From a virus, in the UHGV virus genome UHGV-0186667: DNA of 32,635 bases; one strand, 5' to 3'. Under the pieces are notes generated by a model. That model had not been told where the DNA came from and made no database searches. It was given only the letters and a program-made list of their open reading frames with translations. Position 1 is the first letter of the stretch. Each line of letters begins with the position of its first letter. A program made the translations under genes and the position numbers. Shown here in pieces: positions 1 through 10,872 of this stretch.

Positions 1-9
1 AATCATGAT

Positions 10-54
10 TGGTGGAGCTGGCGGGAGTTGAACCCGCGTCCGAAATTCCTACAT
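10..54 (-). repeat. att core: copy of the 3'-terminal ~45 nt of ssrA (tmRNA), minus orientation, adjacent to integrase
   Basis: Positions 10-54 read TGGTGGAGCTGGCGGGAGTTGAACCCGCGTCCGAAATTCCTACAT, the reverse complement of the E. coli ssrA 3' end as I remember it. Identity stops at 55, so this is a fragment, not the whole gene. Confidence 0.6.
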
Positions 55-171
55 ACCATTTTTACACTAACGAAATCATATTTTTTCATTTTAAATCATG
101 ATGTTAGTGTTAATCTGTGTTTGCTTGTTTTACTTGTTTTTAGTGCTCTGCCGCCAAAGTGCCGCCATTTA

Positions 172-1197
172 TTAGCGATGCCAGTTGAGGTTATGAAGTG
201 GATTTTTGGTAACGGCATCTTCCAGATGATCCGGTGCAAAATGGGCATAAATCATGGTCATTTTAATATCAGCGTGCCCTAAAATATCCCTCAATACTAA
301 AATGTTTCCGCCGTTCATCATAAAGTGGCTGGCGAAAGTGTGGCGCAGAACGTGGGTACATTGACCTTCAGGTAGTTCAATTCCAGCTCGTTTTACCGCA
401 CGCTCAAAAGCCTTTCGGCATGGTGTGAATAACTTTCCTCTGTTTTTGGGTAATTCTTCATACAGTTCCTGAGAAATAGGAACAGTTCGGTTTTTCTTTC
501 CTTTTGTTTTGGTATAGGTAATTCGATACTTTGATATCTGGTTACCTTGCAGGTTTTCGGCTTCGCTCCATCTTGCCCCGGTTGCCAGACAAATCTTGGC
601 AATCATTAGCAGACTGGGACTTTGAGATTCAGCACAAGCGTCAAGCAGGCGTTTGATTTCATCAGCAGCAAGGAACGCCAGTTCACCCTCTGCAATTTTG
701 AAAGTTGGCAGACCGGCGAGAGGGTTGGGTGCAGACCAATGTCCCAGCTTTTTCAGTGTGCCAAAAACTGAGGATAGGTTACGTTGTTCAAGGTTCACCG
801 TTCTGGGCTTAACTGGTGACATGAGCACACCATCTTCGTTTTTGACCTCACCTTTTAATCTGGCTTCCCGGTATTTTGTGAAATCACCTGCTGTCAATTC
901 AGAAGCGATGGGATCGCCAAGCCCATTACAAATGATTTTTAACTTAGCCATTAATCGCTTAGGGTCAGCGAGTGTCTGACCGTACAGGGAATACCATTGC
1001 TCAATCACTTCTGACAGTTGTCGCCGATCTTCCTTTTCTCCCAGCCAAGGTTTCTTGTTTACCTCGTCCATGGTGAAATTCTCAAACGCAATGGCTTCGC
1101 CTTTCGTCGCAAATTGTTTGCGTACGCGTTTGCCATCTCGCCCGTTTGGGTAGCATTCACATAACCACTTTCCGTTCGGCTGTTTTCTGATGGTCAT
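172..1197 (-). CDS. int: Tyrosine integrase, P2/186 family
   Basis: 341 aa. C-terminal motifs ATGARWSEA, HVLRHTFASHF and MIYAHFAP match the tyrosine-recombinase catalytic region of P2 Int. Sits next to the att core. Confidence 0.9.
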   Translation of the reverse strand: MTIRKQPNGKWLCECYPNGRDGKRVRKQFATKGEAIAFENFTMDEVNKKPWLGEKEDRRQLSEVIEQWYSLYGQTLADPKRLMAKLKIICNGLGDPIASELTAGDFTKYREARLKGEVKNEDGVLMSPVKPRTVNLEQRNLSSVFGTLKKLGHWSAPNPLAGLPTFKIAEGELAFLAADEIKRLLDACAESQSPSLLMIAKICLATGARWSEAENLQGNQISKYRITYTKTKGKKNRTVPISQELYEELPKNRGKLFTPCRKAFERAVKRAGIELPEGQCTHVLRHTFASHFMMNGGNILVLRDILGHADIKMTMIYAHFAPDHLEDAVTKNPLHNLNWHR

Positions 1198-7199: not shown

Positions 7200-7388
7200 A
7201 TGCAGGACTATTTTTTGGAGTCTTTGAAGCTCCAGCGCATTGATTTTTTTCTTAAGCTTGTAGCGGCTAGTGAGTGTAGTGATGAAGAGAAGGGGCTGGC
7301 TTTGCAGTGGGTTTCTGAACTAACAGATGAACTCATGGCAAAAATCAGAACCCACGAATACAACCGCTCAATGGATGTCATCAGTTGA
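7200..7388 (+). CDS. Hypothetical small protein, first gene of the SOS-controlled module
   Basis: 62-aa ORF with SD GGAGGA just upstream, directly after the LexA box; position equivalent to 186 tum. Confidence 0.45.
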   Translation: MQDYFLESLKLQRIDFFLKLVAASECSDEEKGLALQWVSELTDELMAKIRTHEYNRSMDVIS

Positions 7389-7399
7389 GGTGACTTTTT

Positions 7400-7633
7400 A
7401 TGCGCATTGAAATAATGATCGATAAAGAGCAGAAGATTAGCCAGTCTACCCTGGACGCCCTTGAATCCGAGCTTTACCGCAATCTGCGTCCTCTGTATCC
7501 CAAAATGGTAATTCGTATCCGCAAAGGTAGCTCTAACGGTGTGGAACTGACCGGATTGCAACTGGACGAAGAAAGAAAACAAGTGATGAAAATTATGCAG
7601 AAGGTGTGGGAAGACGACAGCTGGCTGCATTAA
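7400..7633 (+). CDS. DinI-family protein
   Basis: 77 aa. MRIEIMIDK...LDALESEL...VWEDDSWLH aligns by eye with E. coli DinI (MRIEVTIAK...IDALAGEL...TWESADDWF). Confidence 0.75.
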   Translation: MRIEIMIDKEQKISQSTLDALESELYRNLRPLYPKMVIRIRKGSSNGVELTGLQLDEERKQVMKIMQKVWEDDSWLH

Positions 7634-7903
7634 GAAACGTTGCTGGCGTCTGAACTTGCTTCTGGCGTCAGCAAGGTTGAACAACGAGCTATGCGAGGCG
7701 TTAGTGTCAATTTGTTACCTTAACCACTATATATGCCAGGAAATTAACAGTTCTTAAGAAACAGCTTGCATGATCGAGCGCATTGAACTTAAGTTTAAGT
7801 AACGCAATCAACAGATGATATTGTTGTCTAAATTTTAAAGATAATCTGTTGAGGTTGTAGGCGTCGGAGTGTAGACTTCCGCGCCATGTGAAAAGGGGGA
7901 GTT

Positions 7904-8119
7904 ATGTCAAGCATCGCCGCATTTAGCCTGGGTAACCCAGTTGAACGTCTGGCAAGGGTTCTTAAAGAGAACCAGGACAAACTCAATCTTAGTAAAGATG
8001 GTTTTGTGTCCGTAGACTTGTCTAACAAAAGAGCAATGGATGCCATCAAGGCACAGATGGATAAGCTTGAAGGCATCAAAACGAGCACTGTAAAAGAGAA
8101 AACTAATAGAACCAGATAA
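7904..8119 (+). CDS. Hypothetical small soluble protein, first gene of a two-gene cargo operon
   Basis: 71-aa ORF with strong SD AAGGGGGAG 4 nt upstream; its stop overlaps the next start (TAATG). No recognisable family. Confidence 0.5.
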   Translation: MSSIAAFSLGNPVERLARVLKENQDKLNLSKDGFVSVDLSNKRAMDAIKAQMDKLEGIKTSTVKEKTNRTR

Positions 8120-8961
8120 TGGCAACATTACTTTTAGCAGTGATTTTGGTTAGTGGTTTTATTTATGTAAACCTATCACTTTCAACAAGATACCGATATA
8201 AGCGTTCCAACGGCTGGGACGCTTATTTTTTTGTGGCTGCCTGGGGTATCGTTTTTTTTCTCCTTGGCGGTTTTTTCACCTTTATTTTGAACGTCAGCGG
8301 AGGGTTTCGTTGGCTGGCTAATGCCTTGAATCTAACACCTGACAGTTTTAATGGCATGTTGTCTTCATCGAAAGACAAACTTCAAAGAATAAATGAAATC
8401 AAACAGATAGCATGGGTTATGATTTCAATTGTCCTCGCTGCGATTTCAGGTTTTGGAAATAAGTTACGCACATCACGTGGAGATCGTCGTTGGGATGCCT
8501 TAGCTAAAGCTGTGGGTAATAACGCTTTCGAATCATTACTCATGGAAGCGTCCGCAAGACAGTTTCCGATCATAGCAACTCTGTCGTCTCGCAAAATCTA
8601 TGTTGGTCTTGTTACTTGTCCGGCGTTAGAAAACGGGCTTTCAGAGCACCTTGAACTTCTCCCGATGTTAAGCGGATATCGGGATAAAGATGATCTAACG
8701 ATTAGTATCACGACTAACTATCACCAACATTATCTTGATAGTGGTGTGATAAGTGGAATGTCTCGGCTTAATATCGAAGATTTCCGTGTGCTCATACCAA
8801 AAGATGAGGTTGAAACAATTTCGTTTTTTGATACTGAGACATATAACAAATTTAAAGAAAATGAAGCCAGGGATAGAAAGAACTGTCGAAAGATTGATAG
8901 TAAAAGTGCATCTTCGCGCAGCAAGCGTGCAGCAGATGCTGAGTCAAATGATCGTGCATGA
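8119..8961 (+). CDS. Hypothetical membrane protein with three predicted TM helices and a soluble C-terminal domain
   Basis: 280 aa. Hydrophobic segments at about aa 3-19, 35-57 and 96-112; C-terminal ~170 aa soluble with a basic tail. Visibly AT-rich compared with phage core genes. Confidence 0.6.
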   Translation: MATLLLAVILVSGFIYVNLSLSTRYRYKRSNGWDAYFFVAAWGIVFFLLGGFFTFILNVSGGFRWLANALNLTPDSFNGMLSSSKDKLQRINEIKQIAWVMISIVLAAISGFGNKLRTSRGDRRWDALAKAVGNNAFESLLMEASARQFPIIATLSSRKIYVGLVTCPALENGLSEHLELLPMLSGYRDKDDLTISITTNYHQHYLDSGVISGMSRLNIEDFRVLIPKDEVETISFFDTETYNKFKENEARDRKNCRKIDSKSASSRSKRAADAESNDRA

Positions 8962-9078
8962 CTATGCTGCATGAGATCGCATGATCGTTTGAGGATCGTT
9001 TTTGCTAGGGCCCGCCAGAACTGGCGGGCTTTCGCGTAGATCATGCACCTGCATGAAAACTACTACATAAAGCGGGCA

Positions 9079-9097
9079 GGCGTGGCGGGGATACGAG
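9079..9097. other. Candidate cos (cohesive-end) site
   Basis: GGCGTGGCGGGGATACGAG shares its first 13 nt with the 19-nt cohesive end of phage 186 as I remember it (GGCGTGGCGGGGAAAGCAT). Lies between hairpins and a 16-bp palindrome. Confidence 0.3.
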
Positions 9098-9198
9098 CGC
9101 GCGCAACAGTGTAACAATCTGGATCTAATGTGATATAGTTACTGTAAATATTATTAACTATTCTTATATGCATTATTAAATATTTTAATGGAGCGTTT

Positions 9199-10872
9199 AT
9201 GGAAAAATATCAAGATGAGGAATATGTAGATGATTTAACTGAGCGTGTTTTTCTCATTAAGCAACAACTGGAAGCGGGAAAACTAAAAATAGCTCATCAT
9301 CTTGTAGAAGGTTTTATTGAAAGTTTTAAAAGAATAAGGCTGCGACAGGATGGTAAAGTTGACCCTTCTACTGTTGATGGCAGAATAAGGGCTATGGGAG
9401 CAGCGGTTAATCACTTTTTAGAAAGAGAAGATATAAAAAACAAATACTCTATTCAGGACTTGCAAAGTTCTTACTTTAATATTCTTTTTAGTAATTTTGG
9501 CGAGTTGTTTTATCTGATGAAAAAAACTAATGCAACGCCACATAAAGCATCAAGTTTTTTTTCTCAACAAGAAGAATATGTTAAGCAAATAGAAGATATT
9601 TTTCCTGAGTTATATAATCAGGTAATAGAGTTTTGGCAGGTAACATCCGATATTGGTGTAATACATTTGCAGGATGGTTCTCAGTTTAAAGCTAATTTTT
9701 CTGGTGACTTATTTCCTGCATTTGATGAGAATGCTGTCTCTATTGCAGGGTTGTATGTTGATACTATTTCACTTCCATGTCCTATATTAAGAGTCGGTCG
9801 TCTCTATGAAAAGTCAGATAAGGCTGAGTTTACAAGGATACTTCTGAAGCATGTCCTAACATGTATGACATATAAAGAAGTAGCGCTTGAAGATATAGAG
9901 CCAGCAATAGTATTAATTTTGCCGGATAGAAGAGATTTTGAAACTGAGAGCAAAAAAAATTTGATGAGTTTTTGTGAGCCTTATGCTCTGACTCATGCGC
10001 AATATCTCTATGATCGACGGTTCGAAAGCTACGATGAATTTCGAGATTTTAGTTATTCGATGAATGATATTGATGCTGTTCTTAAAAATATTAAGAGAGC
10101 AGATAGACTTATTTTTGATACAGCATGGGGGCTAAATCCAAAAACTCAATTAGAAAAACTACTATCTGATAAAAAAAGAATATCACGTAATGTTGTTGGT
10201 GATCATGCTGGAATGGAGGTTTTCCTTTCCTGCATTGGAAGAATGCCGCAAGCCTATTCAGCAAAATGTAATGCACAAGAACTTGGTAGTACTCCATATA
10301 TAAATGCAGACACATCTTGGCTCTATTATACTTGGCTTATTGAGTACGAATCTCTTAATTTTGATGTCAATGATATTGAACTAAAAAATTTGCATATGGT
10401 TCATGCGTTATCTGCTGGTATGCAAGATGGTTTTTCATGGTTAGGAAATGTACCGGTCAATAAAATAATTGAGTTGAGACGTAACAAATTGATGGAGGAT
10501 GTAAGATCCATCTTATCAAATGGTGTTGACTCTTTAATCAATTCTTCGGCAGAGAGCTTTTCGAGGACAACGCAAAAAGTAATTGATAATGTAGACCGGG
10601 CTTTTATTGAACATCAAAGGATTCTTGCAAAAGCCCAAAAAGAGAAATTGAGAATTTACGGACTAGATGTCCTACCATGTATCGCAAATGGTGCTATAGC
10701 AATTGCTGGAGCGCTGACTGGCAATACTACTTTAACGGCGTTAAGTGCAGGCCTTGGAGTAATAGGTATTCCGAGTATTAGTGATATCAAATCTAAATTT
10801 AAGCAGAGGCAAGAGAAGCTTGATGCCTATCAACGTTCTGTTACAGGTATACTCTTTAGCCATAAATCTTAA
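9199..10872 (+). CDS. Hypothetical 557-aa cargo protein with C-terminal hydrophobic Gly/Ala-rich segment
   Basis: Long uninterrupted ORF, strongly AT-rich, SD GGAG 5 nt upstream. No Walker A, no YxDD, no recognisable catalytic motif. C-terminal stretch IANGAIAIAGALTGNTTLTALSAGLGVIGIPSI looks membrane-inserting. Confidence 0.7.
   Translation: MEKYQDEEYVDDLTERVFLIKQQLEAGKLKIAHHLVEGFIESFKRIRLRQDGKVDPSTVDGRIRAMGAAVNHFLEREDIKNKYSIQDLQSSYFNILFSNFGELFYLMKKTNATPHKASSFFSQQEEYVKQIEDIFPELYNQVIEFWQVTSDIGVIHLQDGSQFKANFSGDLFPAFDENAVSIAGLYVDTISLPCPILRVGRLYEKSDKAEFTRILLKHVLTCMTYKEVALEDIEPAIVLILPDRRDFETESKKNLMSFCEPYALTHAQYLYDRRFESYDEFRDFSYSMNDIDAVLKNIKRADRLIFDTAWGLNPKTQLEKLLSDKKRISRNVVGDHAGMEVFLSCIGRMPQAYSAKCNAQELGSTPYINADTSWLYYTWLIEYESLNFDVNDIELKNLHMVHALSAGMQDGFSWLGNVPVNKIIELRRNKLMEDVRSILSNGVDSLINSSAESFSRTTQKVIDNVDRAFIEHQRILAKAQKEKLRIYGLDVLPCIANGAIAIAGALTGNTTLTALSAGLGVIGIPSISDIKSKFKQRQEKLDAYQRSVTGILFSHKS

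Follow-up and report, generated by a model that had tools for sequence, protein, structure and literature searches.

The 1,249 bp segment at positions 7705–8953 (plus strand) of viral genome UHGV-0186667, a 32,635-nucleotide stretch of DNA termed here the window, is firmly established as exchangeable accessory cargo, a 'moron' that lies outside the phage core. The window is an Escherichia coli prophage of the P2/186-like type (Peduoviridae). Its cassette carries two overlapping genes, one for a 71-amino-acid (aa) soluble protein and one for a 280-aa inner-membrane protein whose soluble domain is predicted to have the Sm/LSm/Hfq fold. The preferred reading is that the pair is a prophage-borne anti-phage module that would act at the inner membrane by exclusion or abortive infection, and the chances of this are put at a little under even. 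The type of cassette and its location are already known; the protein families, and an architecture that combines transmembrane (TM) helices, an Sm-like domain and a small partner, are without description in the searchable literature.

Region 7650–9150 of the window is 99.9% identical to a locus of E. coli 210221272 (NZ_CP016404.1). The RefSeq annotation of this locus gives the order replication endonuclease A, a 62-aa protein, DinI, two hypotheticals, a 557-aa hypothetical, portal Q and terminase P, and places Q and P on the opposite strand. The annotation confirms the position of the pair between replication gene A/DinI and portal Q, as had been proposed in a first-pass annotation made from the sequence alone, which put it between gene A and the packaging genes. 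The A–Q interval is a defence hotspot described by Rousset et al. (2022; PMC9122126), and in P2 it is occupied by old and tin. The pair appears in Table S5A of that paper under the entry 'hypothetical + hypothetical', and it is not among the systems that were cloned and tested there. A P2/P4-type cos core, GGCGTGGCGGGGATACGAG, is found at about 9079–9097 by comparison with the P4-type cos of Table S2A (PMC9122126). This core is downstream of the pair, and therefore the pair fills a slot before cos and the 557-aa open reading frame (9199–10872) occupies a separate slot after it.

The boundaries of the cassette are defined by a natural empty site. In the P2-like element of CP019275.1, the flanks are 96–99% identical to those of the window and 7 nucleotides replace positions 7705–8953; the left-hand blastn match to the window runs to 7704 and the right-hand one resumes at 8954. 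Thus, the cassette has approximately 200 bp of upstream DNA of its own, and its right boundary falls in the final codons of gene 2. Of 5,426 complete E. coli genomes, 52 (∼1%) have the cassette, compared with ∼1,270 that have the flanks, and the block at 8954–9104 is conserved in more than 1,200. Position next to cos, and variable presence with different genes at the site, characterize A–Q hotspot cargo, and both are found here: among related P2-like phages, a comparison of the interval shows that the pair comes and goes and that the occupants of the site differ. The first-pass annotation had regarded the pair as cargo, and the 52 genomes and the 7-nucleotide empty site uphold this. It had also named two observations open to computation that would count against its view, clear homology to a phage structural or housekeeping function and a place in the conserved core of all related P2-like phages. 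Neither was made, and most of these phages lack the pair.

The slot after cos holds different genes in different prophages. The 557-aa protein of the window is weakly DitB-like. Klebsiella phage ST15-OXA48phi14.1 has the pair together with a bSEFIR gene (E = 7e-103) in this slot, and E. coli WL7562 has it together with a DUF262/HEC-06 GmrSD-like gene (E = 1e-89). At the same hotspot, other prophages carry either an HsdR-N-terminal domain protein together with a KAP NTPase or a small gene that is unrelated; the KAP NTPase is in the after-cos cargo slot of related prophages. A single three-gene system made up of the pair and the 557-aa open reading frame was considered and rejected, as each occurs without the other: the 557-aa gene stands without the pair at the empty-site locus (L003), and elsewhere the pair is accompanied by other after-cos genes.

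Gene 1 (7904–8119, plus strand) encodes the 71-aa protein (RefSeq WP_000094764; PHROG 9843) and gene 2 (8119–8961, plus strand) the 280-aa protein (RefSeq WP_021556032; PHROG 3630). The TAA stop codon of gene 1 (8117–8119) and the ATG start codon of gene 2 (8119–8121) form a TAATG overlap (8117–8121, plus strand), which provides for translational coupling. A strong Shine-Dalgarno sequence, GGGGGAG (7895–7901, plus strand), is found before gene 1; gene 2 has none. The GC fraction is 0.39–0.44 over positions 7600–9000 vis-à-vis 0.50–0.55 in gene A and 0.51–0.62 in Q/P, and the composition of the cassette (∼40% GC) is foreign to that of the backbone (52–55%). The two open reading frames with these coordinates and lengths, their coupling through TAATG and their AT-richness had all been pointed out beforehand, and each point holds.

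Sequence comparisons indicate that both genes are real and under purifying selection. The gene 1 product matches the PHROG 9843 HMM over residues 1–66 of 71 (E = 1.4e-36), and the gene 2 product matches that of PHROG 3630 over residues 1–270 of 280 (E = 8.8e-99); both are phage protein families with no functional annotation. Relative to the Klebsiella phage copy, which is 80% identical, dN/dS is ∼0.22 for gene 1 and ∼0.05 for gene 2, the latter value with dS near saturation. Chance open reading frames are ruled out because of these ratios, the homologues of both proteins and the PHROG matches of both.

The region upstream of gene 1 (7705–7903, plus strand) is specific to the cassette, contains conserved blocks, and is the presumed promoter/operator region. 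The blocks are CACTATATATGC (7726–7737) and a palindrome, AACTTAAGTT (7786–7795). They are kept in the window and in the Klebsiella phage, Serratia sp. L9, Citrobacter and Enterobacteriaceae copies; the S. inhibens copy retains only the ACTTAAGT core. A scan for the sigma-70 consensus upstream of gene 1 gave no strong match, and for this reason a promoter is only presumed to be within 7705–7903. On the other side of the pair, 45 nt after the gene 2 stop codon, a GC-rich hairpin followed by UUUCG (9007–9032, plus strand) is a likely terminator, and the RNA fold of 8962–9045 has a z-score of −2.8. The hairpin is part of the conserved cos flank and is outside the cassette; the flank is also kept in cassette-free phages. 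An Rfam scan of the whole window yielded no RNA family.

Pfam and NCBIfam scans of both proteins gave nothing significant. With the 5,027 models of PADLOC-DB v2.0.0, the 71-aa protein had no match and the 280-aa protein had a chance-level match only (E = 0.14); homologues of the pair from IncC plasmids had no PADLOC match either. The first-pass annotation had recognized no family for either open reading frame and had recommended a PADLOC search; the scans agree with the former, and the latter brought up no known defence model. In the part of the DefensePredictor supplement text that was accessible, the pair was not found. A search of the literature and supplements, by accession and by sequence, revealed no report of a functional test of the pair.

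The 71-aa partner, a basic protein (pI 9.9), lacks TM segments. Its structural model, which is of low confidence (pLDDT 64), shows a helix, a short hairpin and a second helix. The NCBI name of the protein, 'multidrug ABC transporter ATPase', is wrong because the protein has only 71 amino acids. Distant partners display a GRGxhxVD-like motif, and half of an AbrB-type antitoxin was considered as a possible identity; this found no support in Pfam, which has no match to the 71-aa protein or to nine diverse partners.

The hydropathy profile of the 280-aa protein displays three TM segments, at residues about 1–20, 35–58 and 94–116. Lysine and arginine residues are concentrated in the loops after TM1 and TM3, which by the positive-inside rule gives an N-out/C-in orientation, and this indicates that the C-terminal 160 residues are cytoplasmic. 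The membrane part (8119–8466, plus strand), as delineated by hydropathy, the positive-inside count, AlphaFold2 (AF2) helices and the conservation pattern, consists of TM1, a conserved cytoplasmic loop, RYRYKRSNGWDAY, TM2, a variable periplasmic loop (residues 59–92) and TM3. The predicted Sm/LSm/Hfq-like cytoplasmic domain is at residues about 136–236 (8524–8826, plus strand), and a charged C-terminal helix or tail is at residues about 237–280 (8827–8958, plus strand). AF2 places a helix at residues 239–278 of the tail, where the alignment is variable; this helix is of low confidence, with a pLDDT of ∼53 over the last ∼20 residues. Hydropathy and the AF2 model agree with the three-TM protein and soluble C-terminal domain that had been proposed at the outset, and the topology prediction and Foldseek search proposed with it gave, respectively, three TM segments oriented N-out/C-in and the matches described below.

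The AF2 model of the 280-aa protein, built with 31 homologues, has a pLDDT of 78. Residues about 136–236 are modelled as a helix followed by a bent five-stranded sheet. The Sm fold is defined by an N-terminal helix and a strongly bent five-stranded antiparallel sheet, and the model displays both. A Foldseek search of the PDB with the model brought up Sm/LSm-type chains only, none of them at E ≤ 0.001, and a search of BFVD gave weak matches only. The Sm-like small-barrel fold is shared by WYL sensor domains. At the sequence level, the Pfam LSM and Hfq models miss the 280-aa protein and 39 other members of the family, and a profile search of PDB sequences found nothing at E ≤ 10.

Residues conserved family-wide are G13, G32, Y36 and G43 in TM1, the first loop and TM2, and K159, Y161, G163, P182, S185, G186, Y187, R188, Y201 and F237 in the Sm-like domain; the periplasmic loop and the tail vary. 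The pattern of conservation is only suggestive of an RNA or nucleotide pocket at the Y187/R188 loop.

The 280-aa protein belongs to a very large family. A profile search of 1.84 billion representative proteins gave 2,891 clusters (50% identity) at E ≤ 1e-3, and nearly all of the best 150 of the 2,891 matches are 240–340 aa long and align over the full length. Pfam shows no domain in 40 diverse members that were sampled. Truncated homologues, which match the Sm-like domain only, are also found in phage genomes (PHROG 23864; Cronobacter phiES15; Pseudomonas vB_Pae_U5).

Pairing was assessed at 80 genome loci from Enterobacterales, Vibrionales, Shewanella, Pasteurellaceae, Neisseriales, Burkholderiales, Pseudomonas, Xanthomonas and Acidobacteriota. 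The small-protein HMM has a match directly upstream of the large gene in 51 of the 80, and the spacing between partner and large gene is −4 to +35 nt in 50 of these 51. Most of 18 distant loci inspected by eye have an open reading frame of 42–130 aa just upstream of the large gene, and the distant upstream frames share a related pattern, 'G-x-hydrophobic-x-V/L-D/N ... helix'. Overall, a small homologous open reading frame directly precedes the large gene at nearly all loci inspected, and the large gene was never found on its own. Six of the 80 loci display a disrupted large gene beside an intact small open reading frame; broken small genes number zero.

The genomic settings of the pair vary. 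It is found before cos in P2-like phages of E. coli, Klebsiella and Salmonella (SEN4/5), and Phage_GPA, portal and terminase families among sampled neighbours suggest that the pair takes this position in other Enterobacterales too. In Pseudoalteromonas and Shewanella, P2-like phages have it in the int-repressor region or at the prophage edge. In an E. coli lambdoid prophage it is a rare insertion in the nin region, present in 10 genomes vis-à-vis 1,475 with the flank. An Enterobacter siphovirus has the pair between tail genes K and I, and an Aeromonas siphovirus has it just before the tape-measure gene. In Pectobacterium it is in a DinI-linked remnant, and on Salmonella IncC plasmids it adjoins a RecD-like helicase gene.

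The pair is also found in plain chromosomal DNA. In the Pseudomonas fluorescens group, a distantly orthologous pair is at one conserved chromosomal locus in at least 12 genomes. Oxidoreductase, OMP, HAMP-sensor and PP2C genes surround it there, phage and defence genes are absent from the vicinity, and nucleotide identity is 70–80% in the module compared with 86–88% in the flanks. The Pseudomonas locus is a sign of a function in the cell, one that phages may have adopted to a different end. As the family is very large and is found outside phages too, an exclusively anti-phage role cannot be assumed.

Four features favour the anti-phage reading: the hotspot position, bona fide defence genes in the slot next to it, transfer of the pair among prophages and plasmids, and its combination of a small partner and a TM protein. 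The cassette, of foreign composition, is precisely present or absent at a cos-proximal hotspot, and different known defence genes (bSEFIR, GmrSD-like) are found beside it. The pair moves as a unit among unrelated elements and takes up typical moron positions. Its layout resembles that of membrane effectors with TM helices and a cytoplasmic sensor domain, and its faster divergence relative to the flanks in the P. fluorescens group is in keeping with such a role. Against this reading are the lack of a PADLOC match, the absence of the pair from the systems tested by Rousset et al., and the conserved P. fluorescens-group locus with neither phage nor defence neighbours. In addition, the model of the small protein is poor, and in two siphoviruses the pair is within a late tail operon, which a lytic-cycle role would fit too.

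As an anti-phage module, the two proteins would form a membrane complex. By analogy with other Sm proteins, the Sm-like domain would probably form rings under the membrane and thereby bundle the TM helices. The 71-aa partner, produced in excess from the coupled upstream gene, would bind and control the membrane protein. By one route, the Sm-like domain and the partner would sense an infection cue, either nucleic acid or a phage protein, and the membrane would then be permeabilized, which would be abortive infection. By a second route, entry of the genome would be blocked, i.e. superinfection exclusion. The ring and pore model is put forward solely by analogy of fold. A broader proposal, more doubtful than the anti-phage reading itself, is that the pair founds a new class of anti-phage system, a partner-restrained Sm/Hfq-like ring with thousands of clusters in Proteobacteria and Acidobacteria. 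Phage nucleic acid or a phage protein would be recognized by the ring on the cytoplasmic side of the inner membrane and the TM bundle would open, or genome entry would be blocked; the system would shuttle among P2-like phages, lambdoid phages, siphoviruses and IncC plasmids.

Other explanations place the pair in the biology of the host or of the phage itself. It might be a module of lysogenic conversion, a membrane-tethered Sm/Hfq-like regulator that binds RNA or another ligand and, with its partner, alters the envelope, stress responses or RNA biology of the host; phage carriage would then benefit the lysogen without blocking other phages. The size of the family, with its 2,891 representative clusters, argues for this, as do the ordinary chromosomal settings and the conserved P. 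fluorescens-group locus beside metabolic and signalling genes, the classical role of the Sm fold in RNA binding and the failure of all defence models to match. Yet the Enterobacterales copies are almost all on mobile elements, in hotspot positions that also house defence genes, the pair is rare and patchy in E. coli (∼1% of genomes), and the Pfam LSM and Hfq models miss it. Such a cellular module is considered rather unlikely. A role for the pair in the phage life cycle at the membrane, in lysis timing, in anti-holin control, in anchoring of replication or packaging, or in control of DNA ejection, would explain why it adjoins cos in P2-like phages and is inserted within late tail-gene clusters of the Enterobacter and Aeromonas siphoviruses. 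However, most close P2-like relatives lack the pair, including the near-identical one with the empty site, the prophage has annotated holin and lysozyme genes of its own, and the position of the pair differs from phage to phage. This role is judged distinctly improbable.

Toxin–antitoxin-like addiction, with the membrane protein as toxin and the small protein as antitoxin, would stabilize the prophage or plasmid and would make defence secondary. As in type II systems, a small upstream gene overlaps the gene that follows it; translation of the small gene is strong here, and the pair is present on both plasmids and prophages. The six loci with a broken large gene and an intact small one, of which the reverse was never seen, also appear to fit, but this 6:0 asymmetry is expected from gene length alone (estimated p ∼0.26) and hence is not significant. 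Furthermore, the small protein has no recognizable DNA-binding antitoxin fold or Pfam match, Pfam, NCBIfam and PADLOC give no toxin or antitoxin family for either protein, the family is stably kept at the Pseudomonas chromosomal locus, and the strong purifying selection on the large protein is as expected of a structured functional protein. Addiction appears improbable, although less so than a life-cycle role. The β-domain of the MscS mechanosensitive channel is classed as Sm-like, and a divergent channel of the MscS type would resemble the 280-aa protein in architecture and size only (∼280 aa, three TM segments and then a small β-domain). With an hhalign probability of 0.5%, no Pfam match and absence from the top matches of both fold searches, this identity is largely refuted and is given very little credence.

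If the pair is active against phages, it represents an effector/sensor architecture of which no report was found, in which TM helices carry an Sm-like domain and a small partner is obligate. A function would then also be at hand for a family of ∼2,900 clusters that has no Pfam model and carries misleading names only. Should the pair turn out to have another role, an Sm/Hfq-like protein anchored in the membrane and conserved with its partner across phyla would still represent unexplored bacterial cell biology. Owing to its short length (1.25 kb), its exact boundaries and the natural empty-site control, the cassette lends itself to a direct test of function.

With respect to known families and systems, the pair belongs to both PHROG 3630 and PHROG 9843, where the pairing and the fold are unmentioned. 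The 280-aa protein has no sequence-level match to the small β-barrels of Sm, LSm, Hfq and WYL proteins. Its domain differs from these in its fusion to three TM helices, in an inserted helical segment at residues 201–222 and in different conserved loop residues, SGYRDKD. The cargo genes of the P2 A–Q interval, i.e. old, tin and the DUF4238, 3HP, DprA-PRTase and 2TM-1TM-TIR systems of Rousset et al., resemble the pair in position, in cassette-like gain and loss, in short size and in having an upstream region of their own, but a PADLOC scan shows no sequence relation between them and the pair.

Like the pair, RexAB of phage lambda and similar abortive-infection pairs of a sensor and a membrane channel are made up of two prophage genes, one for a soluble partner and one for a polytopic inner-membrane protein, and the proposed logic is alike, a trigger that leads to depolarization of the membrane; a PADLOC scan detected no homology between them and the pair. 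The size relation of the Rex proteins is the reverse of the tiny partner and larger membrane protein found here. RexAB also differs in that the membrane protein of the pair has a cytoplasmic Sm-like domain of its own.

Comparison with Cap15 of CBASS and with Cam1, Cap1 and Chp1 of type III CRISPR systems is based on those portions of the reports that were accessible. As described there, a partner enzyme synthesizes the cyclic nucleotides that activate these effectors; the pair has no linked cyclase, and a conserved partner of 55–90 aa takes the place of the signalling enzyme. Their sensor is a CARF domain or an eight-stranded barrel, whereas that of the pair is predicted to be Sm-like. Oligomerization of the sensor opens a pore in these systems, and by analogy only the same may apply to the pair. 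N-terminal TM helices joined to a small cytoplasmic sensor domain are common to these effectors and to the pair.

The interval between replication gene A and portal gene Q, the A-Q hotspot, is divided by a conserved 150-bp block (window 8954-9104) that contains a P2/P4-type cos core (about 9079-9097) and is shared by over 1,200 E. coli genomes. The hotspot consists of a cargo slot before cos and another after it, and these are exchanged separately. The first holds the two-gene cassette, and the second, between cos and Q, has an open reading frame of 557 aa on the plus strand (9199-10872); the occurrence of the cassette and that of the 557-aa ORF are independent of each other. Two further plus-strand genes separate gene A from the cassette and are outside the latter. 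These encode a 62-aa protein of PHROG 698, function unknown (7200-7388), and a DinI-like protein (7400-7633; Pfam DinI, E 5e-23). Both are kept in several of the related P2-like phages examined, and AR437 is without DinI. A further position of a typical accessory or defence-like kind in the same prophage is the integrase-CI repressor interval. It has a DUF4041 domain protein, which the start of the window truncates to its N-terminal part (1-1015, minus strand); for the identical locus, RefSeq annotates a protein of 558 aa between integrase and CI repressor.

At the DNA sequence level, the cassette-specific upstream region contains a perfect palindrome, AACTTAAGTT (7786-7795), and a second block, CACTATATATGC (7726-7737). 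Both are shared by the window and four copies found in other genera, and a fifth copy, that of S. inhibens, has the core of the palindrome only. A strong sigma-70 consensus was not found in the cassette upstream DNA. The two motifs may represent an operator or promoter.

At the protein level, the 71-aa product (7904-8119) and its homologues are labelled 'multidrug ABC transporter ATPase' by NCBI and UniRef, which is evidently a propagated misannotation. Among the 80 genome loci, six have a large gene broken by a frameshift or stop with the upstream small ORF intact (L029, L032, L036, L048, L062 and L070), two of these being Candidatus Symbiopectobacterium, and no broken small ORF was seen beside an intact large gene. 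Given the gene lengths, this 6:0 bias is not significant. In Pseudomonas phage vB_Pae_U5 (locus L101, 1-768) and Cronobacter phage phiES15 (224-610), proteins located where the phage records end match the 280-aa protein solely over its Sm-like domain (query residues about 124-258; PHROG 23864).

Distant orthologues of the pair in the Pseudomonas fluorescens group share one conserved chromosomal locus, flanked by 0-7 kb of variable DNA (module ~7800-8830 of each of loci L065, L067, L073, L075, L077-L081, L083, L086 and L087). The module displays 70-80% identity compared with 86-88% for the flanks, and therefore is less conserved. IncC conjugative plasmids carry a copy at 23% identity, which in Salmonella plasmid pSTY1-2010K-1587 (L102, 3872-6789) encodes proteins of 68 aa and 262 aa. 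This pair immediately follows a 547-aa RecD-like helicase (PADLOC typeIV_RecD, E 2e-50; PDC-S68), and a mercury-resistance transposon adjoins it.

The 557-aa ORF has a GC content of 0.32-0.38, the lowest of the surrounding region. No Pfam domain was found in it, and no DitA-like partner is evident. Its PADLOC matches are weak and partial: DitB of the Aditi system (E 7e-10) and LeoBC (E 0.005). In the survey of P2 hotspot cargo by Rousset et al., the ORF is system 79, with 49 occurrences (Table S5B; PMC9122126).
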